From assembly GCA_034667725.1 (NCBI GenBank), contig JAXDQS010000001.1, positions 256,001 to 320,000 of the forward strand: DNA of 64,000 nt, given 5' to 3'. A model generated the notes under the pieces. That model worked only from the letters and a program-made list of their open reading frames with translations. It was not told where the DNA came from and did no database searches. The position numbers and the translations under genes are program-made. This DNA comes from Thermoplasmata archaeon (GTDB lineage Archaea; Thermoplasmatota; E2; JACPAO01; JAHFTW01). Below, piece by piece: positions 214 to 16,007 of this stretch; position 1 is the first letter of the stretch; each line of letters begins with the position of its first letter.

Positions 214-233
214 GGGCGCCCGGGACCCGCCCC

Positions 234-241
234 GTTTAACT
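234..241 (+). promoter_or_regulatory. TATA-like box for a leaderless DUF4382 gene
   Basis: GTTTAACT in GC-rich context, about 24-30 nt before ATG 264; no SD sequence. Confidence 0.4.
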
Positions 242-263
242 TGGCCGGGCCTTGGCGCCCGCC

Positions 264-809
264 ATGCGAACCTTCGGCGCCCTCACTGCCCTCGCCCTTG
301 CCCTGACCGCGCTTGCCGGCTGCTCCAGCTCCGGCGGCGACGGCACCCTCAACGTCCACGTCACCGACGCCCCCGGCGCCATCGGCGACTTCACCAGCCT
401 CACCATCACCGTCTCCAGCATCGAGCTCAAGCACAAGGGCAACGACGGCGTCGAGAAGACCGACGCCTACACCCCCGACGACAAGGAGTTCGACCTCGCC
501 AAGCTCACCAACGGCAACGTCACCACCATCTTCGGCGGCAAGGTCGCCAACGGCACCTACACCAAGATGGAGTTCATCGTCGCGAGCGCCACGGGCGTCC
601 TTGCGGCCGACGGCAAGACCGTCCAGGTCGACGCGCCCAAGGGCAGCATCTTCGTCAACACCCAGTTCACCGTCGGCGACGGCTCCGAGGTCGACTTCGT
701 GTTCGACATCCACGTGGTCGCCAAGGGCAACGGCGGCTACTCGCTCCAGCCCAACGCCGGCGGCAGCAAGGTCGTGGCGAAGCCCACCAACGGCAAGATT
801 CCGCAGTGA
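264..809 (+). CDS. DUF4382-domain lipoprotein
   Basis: Lipobox LAGC, then GTLNVHVTDAP...FDLAKLT...GTYTKMEF...DFVFDI, the typical DUF4382 pattern. Confidence 0.8.
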   Translation: MRTFGALTALALALTALAGCSSSGGDGTLNVHVTDAPGAIGDFTSLTITVSSIELKHKGNDGVEKTDAYTPDDKEFDLAKLTNGNVTTIFGGKVANGTYTKMEFIVASATGVLAADGKTVQVDAPKGSIFVNTQFTVGDGSEVDFVFDIHVVAKGNGGYSLQPNAGGSKVVAKPTNGKIPQ

Positions 810-853
810 AGCGCTCCCGAAGCCTCTATGCGTCCCGGCGGGGCTGGGCACCC

Positions 854-2056
854 ATGGACAACGCGCACCCGACCCCGAAGGCGCTTGGCTGGACCTGGAA
901 GGTGGCCCGCGACTGGTCCCGCGGGTGGCGCTTCCACGTCGGGCTGCCGGTCCTTGTTGCCGTGATTCCGTTCTTGGCCTTCGTGGCCGTCGGGCGGCAG
1001 GAGGGGACGCTCTGGCTGCCGAACGTGGACGGGGTGCACAACAACGGCCTGTTCGAGGATCCCATCTTCCTGGCCTACTTCCCGGTGGCGTGGCTGCTGC
1101 TCTACTCCGCGCGCCACATCGTGCGCAGCGCCCGCGATCTTCGGAAGGCCCTTCCGTTCGTCGTGCGGCACGACGGCAGGTCGACGCTCACGGAGGCCCG
1201 CTTCAAGGAGATGGGCGACTACTACGACGTCCTCTTGGCCAGGATGGCGCTCCAAAAGGTTCCCCCGCAAGGCAAGGCCCCCGACTCCTGCAAGGGACTG
1301 TCCCTGGCCGTCCGCGTCCTGGTCCCGCTCACCTTCGCCGTCGCCGGCCTGTTCCTCGCCCTCAGCACTTACCAGCACTGGAACGCGCAGCAGGCCTACG
1401 GCTTCGACATCTGGGCCTCCTCCCACCATCTGCTCGGCTTCTGCCTGCGCCTGGCCTTCGAGACCGTCCTGTACCCCTTCATGGCGATCGTGGTCTCGCA
1501 GCTGCTCGTGGCCATCTGCATCATGCAGCACGCCCTGCGCACCCTGCGGAGCCACGACGCCATCCGCTACGTCCGCTTCGCCCACGACCGCGCCGGCGGC
1601 TTCGCCGAGTTCGGCGAGCACTCCCTCATGCACGTCGTGGCCATGCTGCCGTTCCTGCTGCTCATCCTGGCTTACGTGGTCTTCTACCCCTCCACTGGAA
1701 TCCTCTGGGTCGGCCTCGTGGTCTACCTCGTCGGCCTGCCTTTGATCTTCTTCCTGCCGCTGGCCGGCGCCCGGCGCGCGATGGGGCAGGCCCGCCGCAA
1801 CGAGCTGGAGATGGTCGGCGGCGCCGTCGGCAAGCACTACGACCAGCTCAAGGCGAGCCTCGGCAAGGACGACCTGGCCGCGGTCGAGCGTGAAGCCGGC
1901 CTCGTCAGCGAAGGCGAGAAGGTGTTCCAGGCCGTCGCCGACCAGTCGTGCTGGCCGTTCAGCACCAGCCTGCTGGCCCGGTTCGGCTCCATCACGGCCG
2001 GCCTCTGGGGGATTGCCCTGCCCAACATCCTCGCCATGCTCGGCTGGGTCGGGTGA
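854..2056 (+). CDS. Multi-pass membrane protein, unknown function
   Basis: About 6-7 hydrophobic helices; DRAGGF and C-terminal WPF motifs; good codon bias. Confidence 0.7.
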   Translation: MDNAHPTPKALGWTWKVARDWSRGWRFHVGLPVLVAVIPFLAFVAVGRQEGTLWLPNVDGVHNNGLFEDPIFLAYFPVAWLLLYSARHIVRSARDLRKALPFVVRHDGRSTLTEARFKEMGDYYDVLLARMALQKVPPQGKAPDSCKGLSLAVRVLVPLTFAVAGLFLALSTYQHWNAQQAYGFDIWASSHHLLGFCLRLAFETVLYPFMAIVVSQLLVAICIMQHALRTLRSHDAIRYVRFAHDRAGGFAEFGEHSLMHVVAMLPFLLLILAYVVFYPSTGILWVGLVVYLVGLPLIFFLPLAGARRAMGQARRNELEMVGGAVGKHYDQLKASLGKDDLAAVEREAGLVSEGEKVFQAVADQSCWPFSTSLLARFGSITAGLWGIALPNILAMLGWVG

Positions 2057-2059
2057 GCC

Positions 2060-2617
2060 GTGCAGCCCATCGGGCGCCAGCCGACCTGGGTCCCGCAGAC
2101 CGCCGGGGACCGCGCCGGGGTCGTCGCCTTCGGCGTCCTGTACGTCATCCTGTACGCTCCCCTCCACATCCTCCACCGCCTGCTCGGCTGGACCCGCGTC
2201 CCGTGGCTCGCGCTCGACCTCCTCTCCCTGCCCGGGCGCCTCTACATGGTCGTCGTCAGCCCCTTCGGCCCCCGCGCCAAGGCCCACGGCCAGAAGGCCA
2301 ACGCCCTGGCGCACACCGAATTGGTCTGCCGCCTCTGCCCCGCCGCCCGCCAAGCCACCCGCGACCCCGCCGGCGGCACCGCCTGCGCCTGGAACCGCGC
2401 CTGGAACGCCGGCCAGTTCGGCATCCCCCCCGACTTCGGGACCCGCAACTACTTCCGCCAGTTCGCTGGCCGCACCGACTTGGCCGCGTACCGCGGGCTC
2501 GGCAAGGATTTGCCGCCCGCGCCGAAGCGGCGGGTCGCCGGCCCGGCGCTGGCGTGGACGTTGAGCCTCGCGTTCTGGGCTATGGCCATCGCGGGGCTCG
2601 TGCTGCTAGTGGGCTGA
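2060..2617 (+). CDS. Hypothetical membrane protein
   Basis: GTG start 3 nt after the upstream stop; N- and C-terminal hydrophobic segments. Confidence 0.55.
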   Translation: MQPIGRQPTWVPQTAGDRAGVVAFGVLYVILYAPLHILHRLLGWTRVPWLALDLLSLPGRLYMVVVSPFGPRAKAHGQKANALAHTELVCRLCPAARQATRDPAGGTACAWNRAWNAGQFGIPPDFGTRNYFRQFAGRTDLAAYRGLGKDLPPAPKRRVAGPALAWTLSLAFWAMAIAGLVLLVG

Positions 2618-2732
2618 AGGCGCAAACGGGGTCGTGGCGGCCAGCTTGCCGGCTGCATGGGTCTTTGAGCGCCTCCCTGCCTGCACCCTCGGTTTCGGCC
2701 CCCCCGCCGGAGCCAAGACAAGGAGCAAGCAC

Positions 2733-5483
2733 ATGACCACAACCACGCACGGTCCCGCACGGGGCCGCCTTCTCCTGCTCGGCCTGGGTGCCGCCGCCCT
2801 CGTGGCCGTGCTGGCCGCCGCCGCGCCGCACGCGAACGCTTCCGCCATCATCGACAACGGCGTCGTCCAGCTCGGCGTGGACGACTACGGCCAGCTCAAC
2901 ATCCCCGGCCCGCCCTCCTCCGGCGGCGTGGCCGTGGTCGGACTGCGCTTCATGCCCACCAACGGCGAATCGACCTCGCCCGGCTGCCTGTGCGAAGGCT
3001 GGGGCGTCTCCTACGACAACACCGTCGAGGGCTTCGCCGACAACGCCATGGGCGGCCCTAACGGCTGCATCGCCCCCGTGTCGTTCACCTCGACGGCCAC
3101 CACCGCGGTCTCGGTCGTCGATGTTTGCGACCTGCGCGTCACGCATGACTTCCACCCCTCGCCGGCGACCCCGAACCTGTACGAAGTGGACGTCTCCATC
3201 GAGAACCGCGGCACCGTGGCCCACGGCGACGTGCTCTACCGCCGCGCCATGGACTGGGACGTCGAGCCCACCGCCTTCAGCGAGTACAGCACCATCGACT
3301 TCGTGGGCCCCACGCCCCCCGTCGAGCTGGTGCAGTCCTCCAACAACGGCTTCGCCGTGCCCAGCCCGCTGTCCACCATGGGCGGCACCCCGGGGCCCTT
3401 CACGGACCTCGGCCCCACCGACCACGGCGCCGCCTTCGACTTCAGCTTCGGCTCCGTGCTCCCCGGCATGACGGTCCAGTTCCGCGCCTACTACGGCGCC
3501 GCCCAGGACGAGGCCACCGCCGACTCGGCCCGCATCGCGGCCGGCGTGCAGCTCTGGTCGTACGGCCAGTGCAACAAGGCCATCGACCCCGCCTGCGACG
3601 AGACCACCGGCACCCCCAACACCTTCATCTTCGGCTTCGGCGCCCTCACGCCCAGCCGCTGCGACCAGGTGGCCAAGACCGGGCGGGCCTTCATCGCGCA
3701 CGCCCACAACTGGGACGTCGGCAACACGGGCTACCTCGGCCCCGCCGACACCTGGGTCGTGGACTCCGGCGACATGTTCACCTACGCCCCGATGGCCCTC
3801 GACGCCACCACGGCCACCTACAGCGGCCCCCTGATGGACGCCGACGTGCTGTTTGCGCGCACCACGGCCCAGGCCTGCGCCTCGACGGCCCGCACCGCGG
3901 TCGCCCACCTCGTGTCGGGCCCCGCCGCGCCGGTGCCGTTCGAGGTCAAGCTGGGCGAGGTCGTCTCGTCGAGCGACTGCCGCGGCCACAGCGGCTCAAC
4001 CACGCTGGCCTACCTCATGGTCAACAGCGTCGTGCTCATCGACACCACCAACCAGCCGCCGCCCAACACCAAGATCCTGCTCGGGCCCGTCACGGTGACC
4101 CTGAACGAGCACCGCGTGAGCCCCGGCGTCCTGGAGGTCAACGCGGTCCACATCGAGGTGCCCGGCGTCGCGGACGTCCGCGTCCTGTCGGCCCGCAGCG
4201 ACATCCATGGCTGCGGCCGCAGCATCCCCGAGGCGTGCGGCCTCACCGTCGGCATCGACGCCGCCCTCAAGCCGGTCGCCGAGACCTGCTGGCCGCCCTG
4301 CGACCTGCGCACCCTCAACGCCCAGGCCCTGCCGTGCCAGCCCTGCGTCGGCGGCCTGGCGGGCATCCTGGAGTGCGCCTGCCAGCCCATCGGCGCCGGC
4401 ATCCCGACCGACGGAGGGATCGGCGGCGGCACCGGCGCGGACCCCAAGCTGTGCTGCCAGGCCCTCACGCCCATCGACGGCCTCGACACCACCATCGGCG
4501 GCCCCGGCGTGCCCGGCCCCTGCCTGCCGTGCCGGACCATCCTCCCCGGCACGCACGCCCTGCCGCCGTTGACCCTTACGACGACGCGCAACGTGGTCAC
4601 GAGCGACTGCCCATGCCCGGCGGTGCTCGGCGTGGACCTCGACCCTGCGGTGCCGAGCGGTCGGGCCTATGCCAGCCTCGACTGCGGCCCGTGCCGCGTG
4701 AACGCCATCGAGGATTTGGACGGCTCCGTGCCGGCCCAGCGCGGCACGGGGACGGTCCTCTGCGACCCGTGCCCGCTGCTGCCGCCCAACGTGGCCGCCG
4801 CCATCCCGTGCCGCCCTTGCCGGCTGACGTTCGGGCACGACGAGCGCGTGGCGCCCCCCAGCGCCTTCGCGTTCGCCGACCTCGATTGCATGCCGTGCCT
4901 CGTGCGGGCCCAGGAGATGCTCGACGGCACGACGCCGTGGCAGCACGGCGACGGCTCCGTCGAGTGCGATCCGTGCGAACTGTTGCCGCCCACCATCGCG
5001 GCCATGCTGCCGTGCATGCCATGCCGCATCACGTACCTCCACGACGAGGGCGTCTCCCCGACCGCCACCGCCACGGTGACGTTCGACTGCGGCCCGTGCC
5101 GTGTCACCTCCGGCCTCAAGCTGGACGCGCTGACCCTCACGGAGTTCCTGTTCGGCGACGTCCAATGCCACGGCTGCCTCGTGAGCGGCATGAGCCCGGT
5201 GCCCGACGTCTGCGTCGGCTGCGACGTCCACGCGGACGAGGACGGCGTCACCCCGGCCCTGCCGCCCGCGACCGTGGCGACCGTCACGCTGAGCACCGCC
5301 TGCACGCACTGCGTCGGCTCGCCCTGCATCGTGCCGGCCTGCCCGCCGGTCGATCCAGCCGACCCGTGCGGCCTCGGCCCCGTGCCGCCGCCCCCGCCGC
5401 CCAGCACGCTGCCCGTCGTCGGCCCCGTCCTGGCGCCCCTGGACCCCGTCGTCCAGGCCGTGCTGGACCTGCTGGGCCTCTGA
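2733..5483 (+). CDS. Large secreted Cys/Pro-rich surface protein (beta-rich N-domain, choice-of-anchor-P-like middle domain, CxPC repeat tail)
   Basis: AGGAG SD before ATG 2733; signal peptide ending ANA-S; PPPNTKI...VTLNE...VNAVHI segment; many CxPC motifs in the C-terminal half. Confidence 0.75.
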   Translation: MTTTTHGPARGRLLLLGLGAAALVAVLAAAAPHANASAIIDNGVVQLGVDDYGQLNIPGPPSSGGVAVVGLRFMPTNGESTSPGCLCEGWGVSYDNTVEGFADNAMGGPNGCIAPVSFTSTATTAVSVVDVCDLRVTHDFHPSPATPNLYEVDVSIENRGTVAHGDVLYRRAMDWDVEPTAFSEYSTIDFVGPTPPVELVQSSNNGFAVPSPLSTMGGTPGPFTDLGPTDHGAAFDFSFGSVLPGMTVQFRAYYGAAQDEATADSARIAAGVQLWSYGQCNKAIDPACDETTGTPNTFIFGFGALTPSRCDQVAKTGRAFIAHAHNWDVGNTGYLGPADTWVVDSGDMFTYAPMALDATTATYSGPLMDADVLFARTTAQACASTARTAVAHLVSGPAAPVPFEVKLGEVVSSSDCRGHSGSTTLAYLMVNSVVLIDTTNQPPPNTKILLGPVTVTLNEHRVSPGVLEVNAVHIEVPGVADVRVLSARSDIHGCGRSIPEACGLTVGIDAALKPVAETCWPPCDLRTLNAQALPCQPCVGGLAGILECACQPIGAGIPTDGGIGGGTGADPKLCCQALTPIDGLDTTIGGPGVPGPCLPCRTILPGTHALPPLTLTTTRNVVTSDCPCPAVLGVDLDPAVPSGRAYASLDCGPCRVNAIEDLDGSVPAQRGTGTVLCDPCPLLPPNVAAAIPCRPCRLTFGHDERVAPPSAFAFADLDCMPCLVRAQEMLDGTTPWQHGDGSVECDPCELLPPTIAAMLPCMPCRITYLHDEGVSPTATATVTFDCGPCRVTSGLKLDALTLTEFLFGDVQCHGCLVSGMSPVPDVCVGCDVHADEDGVTPALPPATVATVTLSTACTHCVGSPCIVPACPPVDPADPCGLGPVPPPPPPSTLPVVGPVLAPLDPVVQAVLDLLGL
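4677..5105 (+). repeat. Internal 67-68 aa Cys-rich coding repeat (about 2.3 copies)
   Basis: (L/F)DC(G/M)PC starts at 4677, 4881 and 5082; the two full copies share CDPC.LLPP..AA..PC.PCR.T..HDE.V.P. Confidence 0.75.
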
Positions 5484-5491
5484 GGCATACG

Positions 5492-5522
5492 GCCCTTTTT
5501 CCCCTCCTTCCCCTCCTCCTTC
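5492..5522 (+). terminator. Pyrimidine-rich, archaeal-type terminator tract
   Basis: CCCTTTTTCCCTCCTTCCCCTCCTCCTT immediately after the stop codon; similar tracts follow other genes in the window. Confidence 0.5.
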
Positions 5523-6252
5523 AGTTCCCAGCCACGCATCCGCAAGGCGTCCTGCGCGTGTCCTCGATCCAACGGGGGCGTGCCAGCAGGCCATACGTCG
5601 GGGTCCAAGTGGCTTCCATGACCAAGGGGCCGGTGGGGGTCGTGAAGGGCAGCACGCTTCGGTTGCAGGCGTCGGGGCGGGTGGCGTCCTGGGGACGCGC
5701 ATCGGCAAGCGTCCAATCCAACAAGCCGCGTGCCAAAGCCTCGGCCGCCGGGCTCGCCAGGAACCGGCGCAACGTCGCACGCCCGACTCCGGACTCTTGG
5801 CGGAGGCTGTGGCGCAGGAAGGCGCGCGTCAAGGCTTGATGCAGCATCTCGTGGGGGCTCGCCTTCGGGCGGCCCCGCCCAGGCGGAGGCGGATTCGCGG
5901 CGGGACTGGCATCCAGCATCCGGGCCAGCAGGACCGGCCAGCGTTCCGGCAGGAGCCGCGCCGCTTCGGCCTCCAAGGCTTCGCGGCGAACGGCCGTCGC
6001 GGTCGCCGGGAGCCGAACGGCGCCGACGATCTCCAGGACCGCCAGGATGTGCGCGCAGGGCTTGGCGTCATGGTGGCGGCGGTCGCTGCTGCACCGCCAT
6101 CCCGCGCCGCGCCGATAGACCCGCACCGACGCGGCATCGGGGCGCGTGCCTTGGACGCGGTAATGGTCCGCGTCCAGGCGCACCACGCCCGAGGCCGCAA
6201 GGATGCAGCGCGCCGCCTGCAACGTGCGGCGCGGCAAGTCTAGGTTTGCCAT
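5521..6252 (-). CDS. SWIM-finger protein, truncated non-catalytic paralog of the adjacent transposase
   Basis: WRCSSD...PCAHILAV finger, GRP motif and YGLLA segment are collinear with the N-half of 6240-7754; no DDE triad; start overlaps the transposase stop. Confidence 0.6.
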   Translation of the reverse strand: MANLDLPRRTLQAARCILAASGVVRLDADHYRVQGTRPDAASVRVYRRGAGWRCSSDRRHHDAKPCAHILAVLEIVGAVRLPATATAVRREALEAEAARLLPERWPVLLARMLDASPAANPPPPGRGRPKASPHEMLHQALTRAFLRHSLRQESGVGRATLRRFLASPAAEALARGLLDWTLADARPQDATRPDACNRSVLPFTTPTGPLVMEATWTPTYGLLARPRWIEDTRRTPCGCVAGN

Positions 6253-7754
6253 TCTGGACGCACCCCTCCGTCGCCCTTCGGCGGATACTTGCGGCGAAGC
6301 TCCGGCTCAAGCTCGGCCGCACTTCGCCACGGCTTGGCCTTGATGCGATCCGCGCCGCCTGTGAAGTCGAGCTTGACCTTCTCGCCATAGCGTTCCCGCG
6401 CCATGACAAGGCGCGTGATGTTCCACCCGATGACCATGCACGCCACTTCGACCTCCAGGCTGGTCCGGTCCTTCGAGTTGCGGCGTCCCCGGCAAAACAC
6501 CTCGTCCCCGAGGCGGGCCTTGAAGGCGGCGTTGCCGTTCTCGGCTGCGTTGCGGCGCCCATGCCGGGCCGCGGCGCCGTCCGGGTCCATCAGCTCCGCG
6601 ATCATGGCGGCCTTGCGGTACTTCTTCTTCTCCGACGAGTCGGTCGGGATTCCCGTGTCGCGGGTGGGGATGTGCGCCTCCAGGTCGTTCTTGGCGGCAT
6701 ACTGGAAAATGTAGTTGGCATCATAGGCCCGGTCGCCGCCGAAGGCTTTCAGGTCCAGCATGAAGCGGGCCTGCTCCAGCAAGGCAAGGAACTTCGGCGC
6801 CTCATGGAACGGCGTGGATTGGAAGTGCCACGCCGCGATCAGGCCCGACTGGTAGGCCCACAAGAACTCGGCATAGGCCCAGGTGTGCAGGCGCGGCTTC
6901 TCTTTCCCCGCCGCGAGGCGCTTGGCCTCGCGCTCAACTTGGCGTGCCCGGAGGCGGCGGTCGCGGGCCGACAACACGGCGTTGGCGGGAACGTTGGCGA
7001 GCCGGGCTTCGCGGGCCTTTTGGATCTTGGACTTCTTCTTAGTCTTCGGCTTCTTTCCCCGGTATCGTTCATCATAGTAGGCATGGAAGTGCTGGGGCGA
7101 CAACCCGGTTCCATCCGGATAGATGATGCGCTCCAACTCGCGCACCGGCCAGAGCGAGATGGCGCCAAGCATCTTCAGCACCCGCAAGGCCTCCGGGTCG
7201 GCGTGGAACAATCCAAGCGTCGAGGCCGCGCAAGCGCCCCACGGGTTCGATAGGCCGGTGCTGGCCTCCATGTTCATCCGGTGCCACACGCGGTAAACGG
7301 CCTGATACACGGCGGCTTCCCACCGCCGGGGCCGCCCCGCCTTCGACGCATCGGGCTTGGCAAGGATGGCCGGCACGCCCACGCGCACGAGATCTTCGAG
7401 AACCTGCGGGAAGGCTTGCGCCATGCGGCGCCAGGCGCGGCGCTCTGCGCTGCGGTCGCGGCCCTTGCGCTCCACGCCGGCGCTCGTGTCGGGCATCTGG
7501 ATATGATCCAGGCGCACGAAGACTAGCACCATGTGGATGCAAGGCGCGTCCTGGTTCGGAACGTTGCTGCCGCCGTGGTCCGAGTCGCACTTCCACAAGC
7601 CATCCTCCAGCCACACGCGAACCCGACGGTTGCCGGTCGATGGTCCTAGGACGCCATACTCATCGCGGCCCCATCGAAGCACGGCGTCCGGTTCTTGCAG
7701 GAGCGTTAGCGCGTCCTGGCGGGTTTGAGGGGCGAGGTGGCGGAACTCAAGCAC
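6240..7754 (-). mobile_element. DDE transposase (IS5/IS4-superfamily-like) with N-terminal SWIM-like zinc finger
   Basis: DGTG (D1), GDRAYD (D2), RRNAAENGNAAFK (E, R-x3-E-x6-K); WKCDSD...PCIH finger. No terminal inverted repeats seen. Confidence 0.75.
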
Positions 7755-8145
7755 CGGCCACCACCCCTTGAACGGGAACGTGCATGAATCGTTGGCAACG
7801 CCTGGGGGTAGTTAGGCACGCGGCTAATTTTGCCACCCCGACTGGCCAAAAAGTGGCTAAAATCTGCCAGTTGCTCCTGGAGATCAGCCGGCCAATCCGG
7901 CTTGACGACCTGGCAAAAAAGCGGCTAAAATGTGGCCAGTTGCTCCTGGAGATCAGCCGGCCAAACAAGGTTCGCCTGGATGAAAAGAGGCTAAAATCCG
8001 GCCAGTTGCTCCTTGAGATTAGCCGGTCAATCCGCCTGGATGATCGGCCGGCTAAAAAGTGGCTAAATTGTGGCCAGTTGCTCCTGTAGATCAGCCGGCT
8101 AATCCGCGTGGACGGCAAGAACGCGGCGGCAAATCTTGGCGTCAT
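7747..8145 (-). CDS. Possible repeat peptide (RLISRSNW x4) encoded by the array
   Basis: ATGA overlap with the upstream gene stop at 8142-8145; stop overlaps the transposase start; repeat spacings are multiples of 3. May be non-coding. Confidence 0.3.
   Translation of the reverse strand: MTPRFAAAFLPSTRISRLIYRSNWPQFSHFLAGRSSRRIDRLISRSNWPDFSLFSSRRTLFGRLISRSNWPHFSRFFARSSSRIGRLISRSNWQILATFWPVGVAKLAACLTTPRRCQRFMHVPVQGVVAGA
7848..8112. repeat. Four-unit degenerate tandem array with 30-bp core GCCAGTTGCTCCTGGAGATCAGCCGGCCAA
   Basis: Cores start at 7866, 7935, 8001 and 8073 (spacing 69, 66, 72). Each is preceded by AAAAG(T/C/A)GGCTAAA. The core is an imperfect dyad centred on CTCC-T-GGAG. Confidence 0.9.
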
Positions 8146-8678
8146 CGCATCATCCCGCCCGGTATGCTGCCCGAAGGGCCGCCCATGCGGACCTCGGGCG
8201 CCGTGGACGCGATGGGGTCGCGGCCGACGCCTGCCGCCAAGACGGCGAGGGCGGCGGCGCCAAGGATGCCCAAGGCGATGCCAAGCGGCGACGGGCCACG
8301 GCGCGTCGGCGCCCGGGCGGAGTGCGGGACGCGCACCGGGCGCGGCGGCGCTTGGGGCGGGGGCACGGCCTCGGGCTCAGGCACGCGCTCCGGCTCGATC
8401 ACGGGGCGCGGCGCATGGACGCGAGGCTCGGGGTCGCGCCACGGCTCGGCCGCGTCGTCCGTCGTGGTGCGGGGCGTGGGCGGGCGCGGCACGCTGTAGG
8501 GCTGGGGCGCGGGCGCCAAGAGCCGGGCCAAGTCCTGCGCTGAAGTCAAGCCCGCGTCCTCGCGGTAAATCCGGTGCGTGTCGTCCTGGACGGTCGCAAG
8601 GTGCCCGCCCCGGCCTTGTTCATCGCGGAAGTCGTTCCGGCCGCACGCGGGGCACGCCAACGGTTCAGCTTCGTTCAT
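8142..8678 (-). CDS. Zinc-finger, Pro-rich, C-terminally membrane-anchored protein
   Basis: GAGGAG SD; CPAC-x13-H-x8-H finger; Pro/Glu-rich linker; helix LGIALGILGAAALAVLAAGV. Confidence 0.65.
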   Translation of the reverse strand: MNEAEPLACPACGRNDFRDEQGRGGHLATVQDDTHRIYREDAGLTSAQDLARLLAPAPQPYSVPRPPTPRTTTDDAAEPWRDPEPRVHAPRPVIEPERVPEPEAVPPPQAPPRPVRVPHSARAPTRRGPSPLGIALGILGAAALAVLAAGVGRDPIASTAPEVRMGGPSGSIPGGMMR

Positions 8679-8984
8679 GCAAATCTCTCCTCAACCAATG
8701 CAGCCGCCAGGAAATATCATCGGGGTAAACCCCCATGGTTTTCGTCCCCGACCGCAACGAAAACGCGCCGCCAACAGGAGGCAGGACGCCAAAATGGAGT
8801 CGTTTTCGGTATGGGCCGGTGTATGGGGTGCGTTTTCGGTTGGTGCCATGCCCCCCGCTGGGTTTCCAAGGTATATGAGGCGGGCAAATGCGATAGGCCG
8901 CAATGCGCCAGCAGCTAGTCGCCGGCCGCAACCTAGCCGAGGGTCGTCCATCCGGGCCGCTGGACTGTCGGGAATGGTCGGCGC

Positions 8985-9100
8985 GTGGTCGGTCGGTCGG
9001 TTCGGCGCGGCTGGACGATCGGTCGGTGAACGGTCGGTCGGTTGTTCGTTCGCGTGGCTGTCCCTGTGTCCCTGTTCGGGTGGGTGTCCCTGTCCCTGTC
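8985..9100. repeat. Low-complexity GGTC(GGTC)n and TGTCCC short repeats
   Basis: Several GGTCGGTCGG runs at 8987-9042, then CTGTCCCTGTGTCC / TGTCCCTGTCCCTGTCC at 9058-9100. Confidence 0.7.
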
Positions 9101-9113
9101 CACGTGGACAAGG

Positions 9114-9256
9114 TTAGGGTCGCGTCCCTGAGCGTCTGAGGGTCGCACTCCTGAGGCCTGAGGGTGCGTCCCTGAACGCCTGAGGGTAGGCCCTGAGGGT
9201 CGCGTCCGTGAGGCTCTGAGGGTCGGCCCCTCAAGCCCCTGAGGGTTCGACCCTGG
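9114..9256. repeat. Iteron-like repeat (CTG)AGGGT..., about 7 copies, mostly 21-24 bp period
   Basis: CTGAGGGT occurs six times plus TAGGGT at 9116; several copies are followed by CCCT, giving short dyads. Confidence 0.75.
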
Positions 9257-9564
9257 CCAGGATTGTTCGCGTCCACATTGGCCGCGTCCGCGAACGAACG
9301 ATCCCAGGCGCGGATCGCGGAACCCCCGGCAGGCGGCCCCAGACGCCATGCTCCGCCTCGGCAGGCGGGGCGGGCTCGGGCGGCAGGGTAGGCGACGCCG
9401 GGCGCGTCAAGGCGCGGCGCAAGAGGCCCAGGACGAAGCCCGCCACGGCCTCGCCCTACTCCGCTGCGCTCGGCGGCTTGGCGGGCACGGACGCAGGCTC
9501 GGCGGGCGCGGCCGTGGCGCCTGGAGCGTGGCGGCCGTGGTGCTTCTTGACCATGTGGCCGCCG

Positions 9565-11046
9565 CTAGGCCGGCCGGAGGCTGGCGTAGTGGACCGTGCG
9601 GCCTTCGCGGCGGGCGGTGGCGAGTTTGGCCTCGACGAGCTTGGCGAGGCGGTTCTGGGTGGTGCTGCGGCTCCAGCCGTGGCGGGCTTGCATCTCGGCG
9701 GCGATGGCGCCTTGCGGGGCGCCGGGGTTGCGGTCGAGCCAATCGTGGAGGGCCCGCATCTCGGGTTCGCGCAGGACCACGAGGTCGCGCCAGCCGGCGT
9801 CATACTTGCCATGGTTCTCGAAGTACCGCACCGTGGACTTGTGGGGCCGGGCCACGACGAGGCCGGCGCGCGCCAAGACCGTAAGGTGGTGCCGCGCAAC
9901 ACCAGGGGCAAGGCCGGCCTTGGCGGCGACCGTCCGGAACGTGGCGCCGGGGTTGGCGACCACGACCTCGTGGAGCTTGGCGCGGCGAGGATGGTTCAAG
10001 GGGCCCTTCACGTGGCGGCTGAACAGCAGCGCGGCGGCCAGCTTCCACGCCAGGACCACGACCGCCACGGCGACGGCTCCGGCCGCGACCGTGGCGCCGG
10101 TCCCGAACGCCACGAAGGGCGCCTCGTCCACCCGCACGGCGCCATCGACGCCCAAGCCGGCCTGCATCCGGTCGCCGCCCAGGTCATGGATGCCTTGAAG
10201 CGTGGTGTTGCCCGAGGTCGAGATGGTTTCCCCGGCCGCCTGGACACACCCCGCGCACGGCGCGGCGGTGGCAAGCGGGAGGCGGGCTTGGCCCGCCAGG
10301 GACACGGACGGGGCGGGGCCGCCGGCCAGGACGTAGGCGCCCTGCCCGCTGCCATGCAGCGCCGTCGCGGTGTCGAATTCGTGGAAGCTGAACGTCTGCT
10401 GCGTGAGGGTCCAGTCGAGCGGGAGGGGCGCTTGAGTGGAGGACAAGCCGCCGCCGTCCGGGCAGGCCGCCGCGCACGCCACTTGGACGCCGAACCACTC
10501 CATGCGCGTTACGCGGGACGCCTCGATGGTGAAGCTGCCCAATGCGCCGGTCGGGGCGAGCACATAGGGCTCGCGGTCGGGCAGGTGCCGCGGGCGGACG
10601 AAATCGCCCTCGGCCCCGCCGGGGCCCAAGAACGCCTCGAACCCTTGGCCATCTGGCTTGCCGGCCAAGGATGCGCGGCCCGTGAACGCAAGGCGCAGGT
10701 CGCCCTCGATGTAGATGGAGGCGGCCTCCGACCCGTCTGCAAGGATTCCGCGCAGGCCGGACACGGGCGCCGAGGATTCGCTGCTTGGGACGGGCGCGTC
10801 GAAGCGCCCGATCGTGGGTTGGTGGCTGGAGGCAAGCGTGTAGGTCCGGTTCGTGGCCGTGCCGGCCGCGTCCGCAAGCTCCAGCCCTACATGGCCGCCG
10901 TTGGGCGGGACGATGACCAGGACGCGCGTCAGGCCATCCACGACCGCCGCGCCGTCCAATTCGGCGGGTACGGAAAACTCGACCCCTTGGCTCGCCGCGA
11001 CACTGGGCACGACGAGCAGCAAGGCTAGGGCAAGGGTTCTTCGCAT
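9565..11046 (-). CDS. Membrane-anchored transcription regulator (signal peptide, extracellular domain, TM helix, tandem wHTH)
   Basis: N-terminal signal; TM VAAGAVAVAVVVLAWKLAAALLF; LNHPRRAKLHEVV..NPG...HHLTVL..AGLV and a second HTH (NPGAPQGAIA...RSTTQNRLAKL). Confidence 0.8.
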   Translation of the reverse strand: MRRTLALALLLVVPSVAASQGVEFSVPAELDGAAVVDGLTRVLVIVPPNGGHVGLELADAAGTATNRTYTLASSHQPTIGRFDAPVPSSESSAPVSGLRGILADGSEAASIYIEGDLRLAFTGRASLAGKPDGQGFEAFLGPGGAEGDFVRPRHLPDREPYVLAPTGALGSFTIEASRVTRMEWFGVQVACAAACPDGGGLSSTQAPLPLDWTLTQQTFSFHEFDTATALHGSGQGAYVLAGGPAPSVSLAGQARLPLATAAPCAGCVQAAGETISTSGNTTLQGIHDLGGDRMQAGLGVDGAVRVDEAPFVAFGTGATVAAGAVAVAVVVLAWKLAAALLFSRHVKGPLNHPRRAKLHEVVVANPGATFRTVAAKAGLAPGVARHHLTVLARAGLVVARPHKSTVRYFENHGKYDAGWRDLVVLREPEMRALHDWLDRNPGAPQGAIAAEMQARHGWSRSTTQNRLAKLVEAKLATARREGRTVHYASLRPA

Positions 11047-11888
11047 GTCCTGTCCCCGAATAGCACCAAATCGCCGGTCAAAGTGGCGTGGGGCACAGCA
11101 GCACCGCGAGCGACCATCCGGGGCAGGCCAAGGCTGCTTAGTAGCATGGGGGGGTTCATGGTGGCCTGGACCACGTAGGTGGGCGCGATCGAATACTGCT
11201 TGTCCTGCTGAAGGTCCAGCATGGCGGTCCCGTTGCCCCAGTCCCAGAAGAACCGCAAGGCGGCAAGGCTGTGGCCTTCGGCTTGGTTCACTTGGCTGGC
11301 CTTCATGGACGACGGCTCGGTGCCCGTCTCGTTCCAGGTCGCCGTGAACGTCGAGGTCGCCTGGCCGGTTTCGTTGAGGAAGTCGATGGCGCCGTGGTGG
11401 ACCGGGATTCCGTAAGTGGTCCGCATGAAGTCCGCCAGCTCACGGTCGCTGACCCACCACGATGCCAAGGCCTGGAACGTGTCCCAGCCACCCACGCGGC
11501 ACGCTTCCGGCGGATCGAGGTTGGTGTGCGACTCCATGACCATCGTCATCGGCCGCTCATACGGGCCCCAACTGACCCGCTCGCATTGGTAGGCCTCGAC
11601 GTAAACGTCGCTGCCGACGCCGCCCGTGGCCGGGGGCCAATCGGACGGCGGAGTGCCGGGGTTCTGGCCTTTCGGGTACGTGTGGCCCAGCCCGACCATC
11701 TTGCAACCGTTCCAGGTCATGTTCAGGTCCACGACTGGCACCACCGGGCCCGGCTCGGGCGTGGTCATCGTTGAGCTCGTGGTGGTCGAAGTCGTCGTCG
11801 TTGAACTGGTGGTGTCCTGCTCAAGCGCTGGGCCGCCACAACCGGCCAGCAAGACCGCCACCGCGCAGACGACGAAGCGGGCCATCAT
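11025..11888 (-). CDS. Lipoprotein, unknown function
   Basis: Lipobox LLAGC followed by a Ser/Thr linker; ATGA coupling with the upstream gene. Confidence 0.7.
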   Translation of the reverse strand: MMARFVVCAVAVLLAGCGGPALEQDTTSSTTTTSTTTSSTMTTPEPGPVVPVVDLNMTWNGCKMVGLGHTYPKGQNPGTPPSDWPPATGGVGSDVYVEAYQCERVSWGPYERPMTMVMESHTNLDPPEACRVGGWDTFQALASWWVSDRELADFMRTTYGIPVHHGAIDFLNETGQATSTFTATWNETGTEPSSMKASQVNQAEGHSLAALRFFWDWGNGTAMLDLQQDKQYSIAPTYVVQATMNPPMLLSSLGLPRMVARGAAVPHATLTGDLVLFGDRTCEEPLP

Positions 11889-12379
11889 GCCGAATTGCAC
11901 TCACTGACTGGGGATGTGGTAAAGCGGTAGGAGCCGAGGCCCAGTTGGTTCGTGTGGATGTCCACGGCACCTGGGCTAATGGTCATCTCGGGACCGTATC
12001 CCATCACGGACGCATCCATATAGAGGCGGAATGGATCGATGGGGGCGTCGAGGAGGATGGGCGAGGCCAGGATGCGAAAAGTCAGGCAGAAGATTCCGCT
12101 AAGGGCTTCCATGCACTCGGGAATCGGGTTGCCGGCCTGGACGCATAGCGCGGCGTCCAAGGTCGCTTGCGCGTAGGCCAGGGTGTATTCGCAGGCGTGG
12201 CCGCCGGCCGGCAGGTCGCTGCACGGCCCGTCCTCCGCCTGTTCCTGCATGGTGGAGGCCAGGCCGACGAGGCCGGCCACGAAGCCGGGCGGCACCGGCG
12301 AGAAGGTCTGCACCCGAACGTCTTGGGCTGCGGCAAGGGGCAGGACCATGAGGGCGACAACGAAAAGCGCAACGCGCAC
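11885..12379 (-). CDS. Small secreted Cys-containing protein
   Basis: GTG start gives signal peptide VRVALFVVALMVLPLAAA; TATA-like box 24-31 nt upstream. Confidence 0.6.
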   Translation of the reverse strand: MRVALFVVALMVLPLAAAQDVRVQTFSPVPPGFVAGLVGLASTMQEQAEDGPCSDLPAGGHACEYTLAYAQATLDAALCVQAGNPIPECMEALSGIFCLTFRILASPILLDAPIDPFRLYMDASVMGYGPEMTISPGAVDIHTNQLGLGSYRFTTSPVSECNSA

Positions 12380-12402
12380 GTGGCCTTCGAGACACAGGTT
12401 CT

Positions 12403-12410
12403 GTTTAAGG
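12403..12410 (-). promoter_or_regulatory. TATA-like box (CCTTAAAC on minus strand)
   Basis: Position relative to GTG 12379 fits a leaderless archaeal promoter. Confidence 0.4.
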
Positions 12411-12643
12411 GTAGTGGACAAAAGCTGGCAGATTCCGAAGCGCCCAACAGAGGAAACCTGGCATTGGTTCCGGACCTGCCAAGGTTTGACCACCGCGTTC
12501 AACTAAGCACGGCGAATCGTCCATTTGCTCATGGGCCGCCACGCCCTCCGCCCCTCTTCCCGTGTTCACCAAGCACCAAGGTTGTCGATCCGAGTGGCGG
12601 CCCATGGGCGTTTCGGCTTTGGCCGAATTTTGGAGAACCCGCG

Positions 12644-14083
12644 ATGACGAACCCACGAATCCACCAGAAGGCCCTGCTGTGCCTGTTGGCGATCGCCCTT
12701 GTGGCGCCTGCCTCCGCCCTGATTCCCTCCGATGCCCCCACCAGGACGACCGCCAGCGCCCAGGACGGCGTTCTCTACAGCTACACCGACCCCAACACCG
12801 GCAGCACGGCGCAGCTGGTGGCGCATGATGGCGCCTTGTGGTGTGAGTGGAGCGACGTTGCGCCGCCGTCGTCCAGCGCCTGGGTGGCCTTGTATTATTT
12901 CACCAACTGCAAGGTGCAGGCGGTCGGGGGCGGCGCGATGGCGTGCGGCTCCGACAACCAGGAAGGCAGCGGCGCGGCGGTCGGGTCGTGCCGGGTGGCC
13001 AGCTTCATCCCGTCCGTCGATCTGCAATGGTGGATCGCCTCGGCGGCCACCGAGATCACCCTCGTTACCGCCACTCATGCCCGGGACGTTTCAGTCCACG
13101 TTTCGGAATGGCGCGAGTCGGGCCATGTCAGCGTCAGCGGAAGCCTGGAGGCGACGGTCGGCTTCGTGGGCCGGGTCGTTGGCGCGGGGATGTTCAGCTT
13201 CAGCGGCAGCGCCAGCTACGAAAGCAGCTTCGAGGAAACCGACTATCAGTATCACTTGACGGATCGCGACGTTCAGATCCAGGAACGCCACGCCACCGTC
13301 CTGGGGCTTGACGGCGGCTTCGTGAACACCGTGCCCCAGATAGAGCGGCTCGACTTCGACGGCGCGACCTTCGGATGCGATGCCCTCAACCTCGTTGAGA
13401 ATCTGCGCGGCCCCCGCCAACTTGGAAAATACGCCAACCATCTCACCGCCCGCGCCCTGACCGGCGAACTGGACACCGACCTTGGCAACACCCGCCTGAA
13501 GGCCGTGGACAATAGGGGCGCCTTTGACAGCTACCAACGGAAGCCGAACGGCTTTGTGGCCACCTTCGACCAATCGAGCGCGTCGGGCTCCAGCGGCGGC
13601 CTGCTTCTGCTGGGTGCCTTGGTGAACCTTGCGACTGACGCGGCGGACAACAACGGCATGAAGCGGTTCGACTCCTCCTTCGCGTTCACCGCCGACTACG
13701 AGACTCCGGACGTATCGTATTCCACCACCATGGTCAGCCTCCGCACGGGAGACTCCTACCGCGTCCAACTGACCGTCCCCCCCACGCCGCTTGACCGGAT
13801 CGTCGCGACCCGCGATGACACGTTGTTGGACTTCGCGATCACGACCCCTGACCTTGCCGAGTATGAGGGGAACTTGGCCGACCTCTTGGCCGACCGCCTG
13901 TTCGATTCGCCCGCCGGGAGCATGGTGTTCGCGGGCTTCGACTGTCCCCCCTCGGGTGGCATCACCGCGAACCGCAACCCGCAGGAATGGACCTCGACGG
14001 CCAGCGTCCAAGGCTACTCTGGCGCCACCAACGCCGCCAAGAAGCTGGGCGTGGACGTTTACATGGACCTGAACCCCTACTAG
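12644..14083 (+). CDS. Secreted protein, unknown function (possible beta-pore-forming-toxin-like hairpin)
   Basis: GGAG SD; signal peptide ending ASA-L; beta-rich Ser/Thr pattern. Confidence 0.7.
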   Translation: MTNPRIHQKALLCLLAIALVAPASALIPSDAPTRTTASAQDGVLYSYTDPNTGSTAQLVAHDGALWCEWSDVAPPSSSAWVALYYFTNCKVQAVGGGAMACGSDNQEGSGAAVGSCRVASFIPSVDLQWWIASAATEITLVTATHARDVSVHVSEWRESGHVSVSGSLEATVGFVGRVVGAGMFSFSGSASYESSFEETDYQYHLTDRDVQIQERHATVLGLDGGFVNTVPQIERLDFDGATFGCDALNLVENLRGPRQLGKYANHLTARALTGELDTDLGNTRLKAVDNRGAFDSYQRKPNGFVATFDQSSASGSSGGLLLLGALVNLATDAADNNGMKRFDSSFAFTADYETPDVSYSTTMVSLRTGDSYRVQLTVPPTPLDRIVATRDDTLLDFAITTPDLAEYEGNLADLLADRLFDSPAGSMVFAGFDCPPSGGITANRNPQEWTSTASVQGYSGATNAAKKLGVDVYMDLNPY

Positions 14084-14106
14084 CCCCCAAGGAGGAATGG
14101 ACGCGC

Positions 14107-15033
14107 ATGAAGCCCGGCACCGCCGCGACCCTTGCCCTGCTGATGCTCCTTCTAGCCGGGTGCGGCAATCCCAACCCCCCGGAACCGACCTCCACCCCCT
14201 CCTCCTCAACCACCACGACCGCCGAGCCGGCCGCGACGCTGCAAACCGTCGAGGGGCGCGACCGCACTTTCATTCGCATTGGCGAACGGCCCGCCAACGC
14301 CACGTTGCGCGTATTCCACACCGCCGAGCAAGAGGCCGATACCTTGGATGGGTGCGGCCCCGGCGGCCCGGGCGTCGGCCGGAATAGCGGGAGGGAATGG
14401 TATTCGTTCACGGTATGGAACCGGACGGGCCTTGTTCACTATGAAGAACACCCCATCTGGCCGAAGCAAAAACGATTCGACCACTCGGTCCAGTTGCCCC
14501 CCGATCCGCCGTTCCTGGTCTGGGTTGAAGGGACCTGTCTGGGGTCGGTGTCCATCCAGTTTAGCACGCCCGACTGGAAGCGGTTCCCCTTGGGCGGCGG
14601 TGGCCCCGAGCCGGGCGCCATTGACGAGTCGTATGAGCCCACGGTCGAGATTCGTATCCCGGCCGGCCAACTGGAAGGGAACGGTTACTTCCGAGTGGAA
14701 GGGAACACCTACCATATCGAGGCGAACACCATTTCTGGCGAATGGACGTTCGAAGGGCAAAGCTTCGGGGACGTTTACACCCATGCCCCGGACCAGACGA
14801 ACGGCGACTGGTACATCCATTCCTGGTTCGACCTGACGGATAGCGGCTGGGAGGAAACCCATGGGGACATCGCCATGCCAGGAACCTACCGCTACCATGT
14901 CGTGCTGGACGCGCCGACCGTGGTGGAAACGGTATGGACCGGCAGAATGTGGGCCATGCGGTTCCTGCCCAGCGAATTGGAGTTGAACGGGTTCCAAGTG
15001 CCGTTCCGGCTCTACGACGACCACACCGCCTAG
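14107..15033 (+). CDS. Lipoprotein, unknown function
   Basis: AGGAGG upstream; lipobox LLAGC; Pro/Ser/Thr linker. Confidence 0.7.
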   Translation: MKPGTAATLALLMLLLAGCGNPNPPEPTSTPSSSTTTTAEPAATLQTVEGRDRTFIRIGERPANATLRVFHTAEQEADTLDGCGPGGPGVGRNSGREWYSFTVWNRTGLVHYEEHPIWPKQKRFDHSVQLPPDPPFLVWVEGTCLGSVSIQFSTPDWKRFPLGGGGPEPGAIDESYEPTVEIRIPAGQLEGNGYFRVEGNTYHIEANTISGEWTFEGQSFGDVYTHAPDQTNGDWYIHSWFDLTDSGWEETHGDIAMPGTYRYHVVLDAPTVVETVWTGRMWAMRFLPSELELNGFQVPFRLYDDHTA

Positions 15034-15052
15034 CGCAGCGCCGCTTGACGAT

Positions 15053-15685: not shown

Positions 15686-15693
15686 CCGACGAT

Positions 15694-15755
15694 CTCCCCT
15701 CCCTCTTTTTTGGCCCGCCCTTCGCCGCCACGCACACTTTTTGACCCACTTTTGG
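15694..15755 (+). terminator. Pyrimidine/T-tract terminator
   Basis: CTCCCCTCCCTCTTTTTT plus further T4-T5 runs after the stop codon. Confidence 0.45.
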
Positions 15756-15925
15756 CCCGCTTCTCCCGCTTGATGCTCCAGCCTACACGGAATCAGGCCC
15801 AACCAAGGGTTGGCGCGGTGCCCCCAACGGGGCCGTCAAGCCCAAATAGCCGCCTCTTGTCGGCGGCCTTTGCCTCTCTGGGCTGACAACCTGTGCGGGG
15901 GTCCCGCACCAAAGAGAGACAACTT

Positions 15926-15998
15926 GCCTTGGTAGTGTAGCGGCCTATCATGGGACCCTGTCACGGTTCCGACCTGGGTTCAAATCCCAGCCAGGGCG
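15926..15998 (+). tRNA. tRNA-Asp(GTC)
   Basis: Acceptor stem GCCTTGG/CCAGGGC, anticodon arm GGACC-CTGTCAC-GGTTC, T-loop TTCAAAT, discriminator G; followed by CCT, so CCA is not encoded. Confidence 0.95.
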
Positions 15999-16007
15999 CC
16001 TTCGGGC

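Follow-up and report, generated by a model that had tools for sequence, protein, structure and literature searches.

A probable terminal transposition module of a large cargo transposon in an archaeon, with an amplified subterminal motif

The locus and its proteins

The window analysed here is a 64,000-nucleotide stretch of a Thermoplasmata archaeon genome (contig JAXDQS010000001.1, positions 256,001 to 320,000). Between 5521 and 8678 it contains four co-oriented ORFs on the minus strand, neighbours of which overlap by 4, 8 and 13 nt, as the sequence-only reading had described them. The features needed for the argument, within this segment and beyond it, are the following:

5521..6252, minus strand: short DDE-less transposase paralog, 243 aa, 3'-truncated relative to orthologs of 299-306 aa
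6240..7754, minus strand: DDE transposase, 504 aa, GTG start, with a SWIM-like N-terminal domain, a Tn5-like fold and an IS5-like sequence
7747..8145, minus strand: ORF through the array, 132 aa, open and coupled to both neighbours, probably not a gene
7755..7836, minus strand: block from the array to the transposase start, with a putative promoter role
7837..8112: tandem array of four 66-72-bp units, found by TRF and a repeat finder
8142..8678, minus strand: C2H2-like zinc-finger/TM protein, 178 aa, a conserved upstream partner gene
8960..9260: short simple tandem repeat blocks, upstream of the zinc-finger gene
9231..9446, minus strand: remnant ORF of a second zinc-finger protein, matching the C-terminal part of a 166-aa protein of the C10 copy (see below)
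12525..12609: conserved element, non-coding, whose inverted-repeat arms are 13 bp long, common to the C10 copy only
15693..15757: cluster of four subterminal A-tract motifs, inverted relative to the array
15812..15822: TIR-like end of the window element, GGCGCGGTGCC, which aligns with the C10 and L135 termini
15926..16000: tRNA-Asp, about 100 bp from the terminus of the window element

The 504-aa protein has the intact catalytic triad that had been claimed for it, D214 (in DGTG), D341 (in GGDRAYD) and E405, separated by 127 and 64 residues. The three residues are invariant in relatives as low as 33% identity, the triad is kept in full across the DDE clade, and E405 is accompanied by the signature R-x3-E-x6-K (in full, H-x2-R-x3-E-x6-K). 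In sequence the protein lies below every curated HMM cut-off and is nearest to IS5: NCBIfam IS5_2 (NF033579, transpos_IS5_2) is the nearest curated model for every family member tested, with scores of 40-47 bits (42.9 for the window transposase) against a cut-off of 140. The IS4 model NF033592 gave no match to the window transposase, and its highest score for distant relatives is 56.8 bits, with a cut-off of 115. The AF2 model (pLDDT 85.7) has the Tn5 transposase 1MUH as its top Foldseek match in the PDB (probability 1.0, TM 0.36-0.40). The protein is probably a cut-and-paste DDE transposase whose lineage within the IS4/IS5 (DDE_Tnp_1) superfamily is unclassified. A scan of named genomes with a pattern from the transposase alignment returned nothing, and a literature search for SWIM domains combined with IS5 or IS4 transposases brought up no relevant work.

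The SWIM label given to the N-terminal domain holds for the fold and fails for the motif. The domain is common to the transposase and the short paralog (30% identity over 82 aa, E 1e-7), and residues 1-81 of the paralog model match the SWIM region of ZSWIM8 (Z 6.3, rmsd 3.4, 77 residues) and Shu2 (Z 3.7). Pfam SWIM (PF04434), however, gives sub-threshold matches only, in 9 of 26 family members and with a best E of 0.055, and the ligands read C56-x2-D59...C72-x-H74, that is C-x2-D...C-x-H and not CxC...CxH. We therefore call the domain SWIM-like; together with the helical region, it is probably the DNA-binding part of the transposase.

The 243-aa protein is a truncated paralog, as proposed: it retains the SWIM-like domain and the helical region, has lost the D2 region, and still matches Tn5 in structure (Z 9.3). 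It recurs in other copies of the element and does so under selection, with 64-67% identity and a dN/dS of 0.32-0.36 against the C10 and L003 copies. The clade to which it belongs is old, lacks the DDE triad and is under selection. The paralog retains the presumed DNA-binding half along with some of the core scaffold; it would be unable to cut, and it could regulate or assist transposition by occupying the same sites or by joining the same complex. Such a role is the most likely one by analogy with truncated transposase inhibitors.

The 178-aa protein combines a C2H2-like zinc finger, a Pro-rich linker and one TM helix, and its C-x2-C...H...H motif is invariant in eight homologs. Its gene lies directly upstream of, and overlaps, a DDE or short-type gene in the C10 copy, both G271 copies, L135, L128, L130 and L133. 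The last three loci pair it with a short-type protein in the absence of a DDE gene, and the short-type proteins of these transposase-less loci have lost the first catalytic Asp as well. Such transposase-free pairs lie on other archaeal contigs, one of them beside a Wadjet-like JetC/JetD locus. Simple tandem repeat blocks like those at 8960-9260 occur at the same place in the C10 copy and also upstream of the L130 and L128 zinc-finger genes. All three genes, for the zinc-finger protein, the transposase and the short paralog, are under purifying selection as judged by dN/dS (0.14 for the transposase against its L003 ortholog). We suggest that the membrane-anchored zinc-finger protein, encoded just upstream, would be a conserved partner of the transposase, and that the DDE-less paralog, encoded just downstream, would be a second one in the window lineage.

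The element in its sister copy and in the window

A second copy lies in the same genome, on contig C10 (C10:77432-79900), with 55-66% protein identity. This copy is a bona fide insertion and shows the whole architecture of the element. The insertion spans about 10.7 kb at a site that is uninterrupted in four congeners. It is bounded by perfect but short TIRs of 11 bp (GGCACCGTAGC at both ends) and flanked by a 12-bp target duplication (GCCGGGCGGGGG), of which the empty sites have a single copy. The duplication sits in a tract rich in G and is offset by 2 nt on one side. Inside are about ten ORFs, subterminal A-tract motifs at both ends, and a variable cargo of lipoproteins and membrane wHTH regulators. 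For a solo end fragment at C10:274720-274760, the sole candidate partner was rejected because it falls within a coding gene.

The DNA of the window and C10 copies has diverged by about 32%, yet the two have colinear landmarks over about 10 kb. The remnant ORF region 9325-9407 is 75% identical to C10:76045-75962 (blastn), with a shared peptide motif; 12525-12609 is 82% identical to C10:72044-71960 and has no other match in the genome; and the motif cluster at 15693-15757 is 81% identical to the left end of the C10 element. An alignment of four ends (window, C10 and L135 termini) shows no variation in the last seven bases. Cargo proteins of the two copies show no homology at E 1e-3, and only non-coding landmarks are common to their cargo. 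The earlier failure to find terminal inverted repeats therefore holds for 5521-8678 itself and not for the element, one terminus of which lies about 7 kb away, at 15812-15822. Likewise, the element is not bounded by that segment: it extends over about 10 kb with its cargo, and the view of a multi-component mobile element, not a simple IS, is supported.

The window copy is an old, diverged and partly decayed relative, about 10 kb long, and owes its status as a transposon to its homology with the C10 copy. DNA homology between the two ends at 5577, inside the short paralog gene, and the C-terminal helix of the orthologs is absent from the window protein. It would have kept the terminus beside the tRNA-Asp and lost the other end together with the 3' end of the paralog gene, and is probably immobile on its own because of these losses. 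A search for the second end with the degenerate terminal 11-mer gave 80 matches, too many to be informative, and a candidate at 3210 was rejected, being inside a gene. Between the same flanks, about 220-15925 of the window is absent from G155 and G238. Upstream of the tRNA, similarity to a congener starts at about 15860; the tRNA-Asp region has a single other match, at a different tRNA locus of C3. A tRNA-targeting integrative element was considered and rejected: the element abuts the 5' side of the tRNA-Asp, the 3' part of the tRNA is not repeated, and the scanned ORFs include no integrase.

The family is patchy, with 116 representatives among 1.84 billion proteins and members in 8 of 301 genomes of the phylum sample (one of five sampled congeners in that search). 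Near-identical copies are absent, and hence there is no sign of recent transposition. Both G271 copies lie in large variable regions, where clean ends were not found: one occupies a variable region of 16 kb, with a tRNA-Lys at a distance of about 1.4 kb, and the other a variable stretch of about 14 kb in which neither TIR nor duplication was recognisable.

The array and its possible explanations

Each unit of the array combines an imperfect 29-bp dyad with a double A-tract motif of the GGCCAAAAG type. The periods are 69, 66 and 72, the units are 67-80% alike, the linkers resemble each other, and the array has no second occurrence in the 2.3-Mb genome. This genome has only three clusters of the A-tract motif, each of them either the array or part of an element end; the top outside match to a PWM built from the array is an element-end fragment. 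The dyad half has no match elsewhere in the genome and none at the element ends, which means that the array is more than a duplicated end. The adjoining block at 7755-7836 carries one further single copy of the A-tract motif, and some 30 nt of it are conserved with the L003 ortholog. In L003, a cognate motif occurs about nine times in the corresponding 415-bp spacer, with copies pointing in either direction. The C10 copy, L135 and both G271 copies have no spacer and no array; in L135 the order is simply zinc-finger gene, DDE gene, short paralog. The array is therefore no general part of the system. The sequence-only reading had held that homologs in the form of ordinary TIR-bounded IS, lacking the array or the paralog, would count against it; TIR-bounded homologs without the array do exist, yet they are not ordinary IS, and the paralog recurs under selection.

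We infer that the array most likely consists of amplified transposase-binding or operator sites, because it is confined to the window/L003 lineage, and protein binding is plausible given that its motif is the one found near the ends of the element itself. It would have arisen in that lineage, between the zinc-finger and transposase genes, by tandem amplification of the subterminal motif joined to a dyad, and would offer a multi-site platform or operator, in front of the transposase gene, to the element's own DNA-binding proteins, which presumably recognise the A-tract motif. Of the two roles first proposed for it, binding sites are thus plausible and RNA is unlikely, as is a gene. That the array encodes a 132-aa repeat protein, the second gene of a four-gene operon, could seem attractive, since all three periods are multiples of three, ATGA and GTG..TGA overlaps couple the ORF to both neighbours, and the same frame is open through the L003 spacer with a similar C-terminal dozen residues. 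We nevertheless consider it very unlikely, and the ORF is probably not a gene, although the frame is open and the array real. Its GC3 of 0.65 and GC1 of 0.44 fall far below those of the neighbouring genes (0.84-0.88 and 0.67-0.77), its product is only 28% identical to the L003 counterpart, with many indels, the L003 motifs lie on both strands, neither Pfam nor NCBIfam gives a match, and the spacer is missing from L135, C10 and G271. Still more improbable is a structured or guide-like small RNA, or a set of replication-origin iterons. Each unit can form an imperfect hairpin (-11.8 kcal/mol), local GC is lower and the repeats are regularly spaced; however, the fold of the whole spacer barely beats shuffles (z -1.86), Rfam gave two tRNAs only and no family match to the array, no cas, Rep or Orc genes lie nearby, and the sister copies lack the array. 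Its non-identical units and interrelated linkers also set it apart from a CRISPR array.

Another explanation is domestication, in which the zinc-finger protein, the transposase and the short paralog would act in host regulation or in tethering DNA to the membrane, with the array as their target and the locus static. Despite their age and divergence the copies are under purifying selection, none is nearly identical to another, the window copy lacks one end, and zinc-finger and short-type pairs persist without a transposase in L128, L130 and L133, with the first Asp lost. Against it stand the TIRs and target duplication of the sister copy, the uninterrupted sites of four congeners, the patchy distribution among close relatives, the full triad of the DDE clade and the lack of the array in most copies. 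The transposase itself does not look domesticated, and we regard this explanation, which the sequence-only reading had offered as its alternative, as unlikely. There is a small chance that the zinc-finger protein and the DDE-less paralog form an independent, transposon-derived DNA-handling pair with the array as its dedicated multi-site target; the array would then serve, for example, membrane tethering, silencing or partition of the element, and would not be a by-product of the amplification of transposase sites. Overall, 5521-8678 is probably the terminal module that moves a large cargo transposon of this archaeon, and the array an amplified form of its subterminal motif.

To our knowledge, large cargo-bearing DDE transposons are poorly documented in archaea, and we know of none in uncultured high-GC Thermoplasmatota. 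This family combines a Tn5-like core and a SWIM-like N-terminus with a membrane zinc-finger partner, a dead yet selected paralog and arrays of a subterminal motif. It could provide a natural system for studying inert transposase derivatives, in the control of transposition and in their passage to host genes. The window copy would represent later stages: an end has gone, the motif has multiplied ahead of the transposase gene, and a tRNA locus shows an associated rearrangement. If its ends and proteins prove active, the element could be used as a genetic tool for archaea.

Relation to known transposons

The IS4 family is defined by a D(60-110)D(100-150)E spacing and the signature Y(2)R(3)E(6)K (PMC2266710). 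The window transposase departs from both, with 127 residues between the two Asp instead of 60-110, 64 residues between D2 and E instead of 100-150, and His in place of the Tyr of YREK; the TIRs and the duplication of about one helix turn that go with this family are present in the C10 copy (11 bp and 12 bp). With Tn5/IS50 it has in common the DDE core and R-x3-E-x6-K, and Tn5 is the best structural match. Tn5 also encodes, with its transposase, a catalytically inert transposase-derived protein, Inh. Here the inert protein is the product of a separate, old paralog gene and not of an alternative start, and the element further differs from Tn5 and IS4 by the extra N-terminal SWIM-like domain, its 10.7 kb, its cargo and its zinc-finger membrane-protein gene. 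The short spacing from the second Asp to the Glu recalls the IS5 family, from which the transposase is set apart by some 220 extra N-terminal residues, and the element by a length ten times that of an IS5-type IS. Target duplications of IS5 elements are mostly 2-4 bp, as compared to 12 bp for the C10 element.

A simple IS has one or two ORFs in about 1-2.5 kb, whereas the C10 copy has about ten in 10.7 kb. IS231-type elements carry extra DNA, and 'transporter IS' with passenger genes have been described (PMC2266710). The likeness to such passenger-gene IS lies in one DDE gene near one end and unrelated passengers between TIRs; the differences are a cargo of about 7 kb that varies between copies, two conserved accessory genes and an archaeal host.

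Multi-site ends and internal sites are known from the TnsB sites of Tn7 and from the ends and enhancer of Mu, and the KP element is an internally deleted repressor form of the P-element transposase. Our element resembles the former in its repeated subterminal motifs at both ends and its extra internal cluster, and the latter in a deletion derivative that keeps the DNA-binding half. The enzyme families are unrelated, however, and here the internal cluster arose recently, by tandem amplification, in a single lineage. Lastly, MULE transposases and FAR1/FHY3 join a SWIM finger to a DDE transposase and include a DDE-less derivative clade, possibly domesticated. In MULEs the finger is C-terminal and the core Mutator/IS256-like, whereas here the SWIM-like domain is N-terminal, with variant ligands, and precedes a Tn5/IS5-like core.

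The module at 5521-8678 and the element that carries it

The four co-oriented, overlapping minus-strand units that the sequence-only reading had singled out at 5521-8678 are present as described, with consecutive overlaps of 4, 8 and 13 nt, and they belong to a mobile element of far greater size. The host is an archaeon, as indicated by the TBP gene in its genome, and its close relatives carry Thermoplasmatota MAG labels.

Features of the window element
5521-6252, minus strand: short paralog ORF, 243 aa
6240-7754, minus strand: transposase ORF, 504 aa, GTG start
7747-8145, minus strand: ORF through the array, 132 aa
7837-8112: tandem array, 4 units of 66-72 nt, between the zinc-finger and transposase ORFs
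8142-8678, minus strand: zinc-finger protein ORF, 178 aa
8960-9260: simple tandem repeat blocks (in other loci, L001 4700-5420, L130 3176-3624 and L128 2990-3277)
9325-9407: landmark colinear with the C10 copy (DNA similarity)
12525-12609: hairpin-like, non-coding landmark of 85 nt with 13-bp inverted-repeat arms, 82% identical to C10
15693-15757: landmark colinear with the C10 copy (DNA similarity)
15812-15822: element terminus, ~100 bp before tRNA-Asp (alignment with C10 and L135 ends)

A second copy of the module lies on contig C10 of the same genome (G000), its transposase 55% and its short paralog 66% identical to those of the window. Four congeneric genomes are uninterrupted at this site, with 0.8-2.2 kb between a DRG-GTPase gene and the next gene, versus 11.7 kb in G000. 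The C10 insert begins and finishes with a perfect 11-bp inverted repeat, GGCACCGTAGC, and both its junctions are flanked by a direct repeat, GCCGGGCGGGGG, which is single-copy, between two promoters, at the uninterrupted sites of two other genomes (G048 and G155). Inverted repeats with a flanking direct repeat that is single in empty sites are the signature of DDE transposition. The C10 element is 10.7 kb long, bears the transposase module close to its right end, and carries as cargo genes for lipoprotein-like proteins and for membrane wHTH regulators. With its repeats and cargo, this copy bears out the proposal of a multi-component mobile element, and it has the terminal inverted repeats of which the sequence-only reading had found none at 5521-8678, where indeed none lies.

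A solo end-like fragment of ~40 bp, in which a subterminal double motif abuts the terminal 11-mer, is found in an intergenic stretch of the same contig (C10:274720-274760); a search for its partner end found none. Beside it lies a relative of a 22-nt sequence that has three identical copies in G000 (C6:89870, C3:396233 and C10:131039), which points to a further small repeat family scattered through the genome.

In the window, the element is a relative of the C10 copy that has diverged and decayed. Its terminus can be aligned with the two C10 ends and with the right end of L135, a third element; the last seven bases are identical in all four, and this alignment places the window end at 15812-15822. 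The other end is gone: DNA homology to C10 stops at 5577, the short paralog stops ~55 residues early, and a gene convergent with it ends at 5483. That gene (2634-5483), inside the genome-specific region, encodes a secreted-looking protein of 949 aa with many Cys-Pro-Cys-type repeats and without a Pfam match. No cargo proteins common to the window and C10 copies were found. The landmark at 12525-12609, which is conserved above any gene between the two copies and has no further occurrence in the genome, may serve as a terminator, as a recombination site or as a small RNA.

G155 (L047) and G238 (L045) have the same flanks but lack window positions ~220-15925 between them. The tRNA-Asp gene has the opposite orientation in these genomes; in the source genome it is inverted relative to its conserved neighbours, and the other conserved neighbour is now on contig C4. 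The absence of the region and the flipped tRNA together indicate both an insertion and a rearrangement, and the transposon may have mediated the rearrangement of this locus. Elsewhere in the window (35540-39615) lie two overlapping genes, one T5orf172/ResIII helicase-like and one for an Eco57I-type methylase, likely a restriction-modification or defence pair.

The transposase and its accessory proteins

The D-D-E triad read from the sequence is indeed intact: D214 (DGTG), D341 (GGDRAYD) and E405 (R-x3-E-x6-K) are invariant in orthologs and in relatives at 33-39% identity. An AlphaFold model of the transposase (pLDDT 85.7, input alignment of 26 family sequences) has the Tn5 transposase 1MUH as its top solved-structure match (probability 1.0, TM 0.36-0.40).

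The "dead paralog" of the sequence-only reading was rightly called non-catalytic, but it is not debris, and neither is the zinc-finger gene (dN/dS 0.26-0.36 and 0.43, with 0.14 for the transposase). It has its first ~100 residues in common with the transposase; alignment with orthologs of 299-306 aa shows that the N-terminal domain, a helical region, the first core strands and the last helices are kept, and that the segment with the second Asp is gone. In a model of the full-length C10 short paralog, residues 88-300 match Tn4430 TnpA (Z 9.7) and Tn5 (Z 9.3), and residues 1-81 match the SWIM region of ZSWIM8 (Z 6.3). Judging by this last match, the label "SWIM" holds at the level of the fold, but not in the ligand pattern (C-x2-D...C-x-H) or in Pfam, where SWIM matches are sub-threshold.

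The zinc-finger protein has a C2H2-like finger, which is invariant, together with a Pro-rich linker and a single TM helix. Proteins of the short type (305-328 aa) form a separate clade, and in three unrelated contigs (L128, L130 and L133) the short-type gene comes immediately after one encoding this same zinc-finger membrane protein; no full-length DDE gene was called within the fetched stretches, and these short-type proteins have lost even the first catalytic Asp. The dN/dS values, the separate clade and this pairing argue for an old, functional, non-catalytic protein family, and nothing else in the system is as well conserved as the pairing. At L130 (1-6220) the pair directly follows genes of the JetC-like, JetD-like and NYN-domain types that make up a Wadjet-like locus, an arrangement seen in three metagenomic contigs.

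The repeat array

The array has a GC content of 0.60, compared with ~0.70 around it, and its sequence is unique in the genome (2.32 Mb, 26 contigs searched). Each unit comprises an imperfect 29-bp dyad and an A-tract double motif. This motif is clustered (at least three copies in 70 bp) at just three genomic sites, namely the array, the window terminus and the C10 left end. It is the subterminal motif of the element, and in the array it is inverted relative to its copies at the distal terminus. A weight matrix derived from the four units, run against both strands of the genome, gave the solo end-like fragment (C10:274726) as its best match outside the array, with the C10 left end and right-end region among the ten best.

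The sequence-only reading took the array as possible binding sites or RNA of a multi-component element, and proposed to check whether it co-occurs with homologs of the transposase. In L135, in the C10 copy and in both copies of G271, the zinc-finger gene directly overlaps the transposase gene, and an 81% ortholog (L003) has in the same position a 415-bp spacer without tandem structure, with ~9 copies of a cognate motif on both strands. From this distribution, the spacer was acquired late, and its tandem form is unique to this genome. A gene or an RNA is unlikely: the ORF through the array has an atypical codon composition, its product is 28% identical to the L003 counterpart versus 82% for the transposase, and the fold of the spacer RNA is unremarkable. 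We conclude that the array is most likely a group of sites, multiplied in tandem, for DNA-binding proteins that the element itself encodes, in a position from which it could control the transposase gene.

At every locus where the region upstream of the zinc-finger gene was readable, it contains simple tandem repeat blocks with differing units of 4-14 nt. Between those of the C10 copy lies a 16-bp palindrome that hardly occurs in the rest of the genome, and GGGAC-type repeats resembling these blocks occur at an unrelated locus (C12:60050-60350).

Distribution and relation to known elements

The transposase family is rare: a search of 1.84 billion proteins yielded 116 representatives at E < 1e-3, one of 5.8 billion yielded three near-length relatives, and members occur in 8/301 genomes of the phylum sample (1/5 sampled congeners in that search). 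Copies within one genome are only 55-67% identical and thus bear no trace of recent activity.

DDE_Tnp_1 scores weakly on the transposase, NCBIfam IS5_2 gives 42.9 bits where its cut-off is 140, and none of the curated IS family models reached its own cut-off on the family members tested, so that the lineage stands as unclassified within the IS4/IS5 superfamily. Compared with the hallmarks of the IS4 family (PMC2266710), the D2-E spacing of 64 residues departs, and a His takes the place of the Tyr. The enzyme class and the logic of the element (terminal inverted repeats, duplication, subterminal sites, inert derivative) are already known, but are not known in this combination, at this size or in such a host. 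To this picture the window copy adds the array and a stage of decay.
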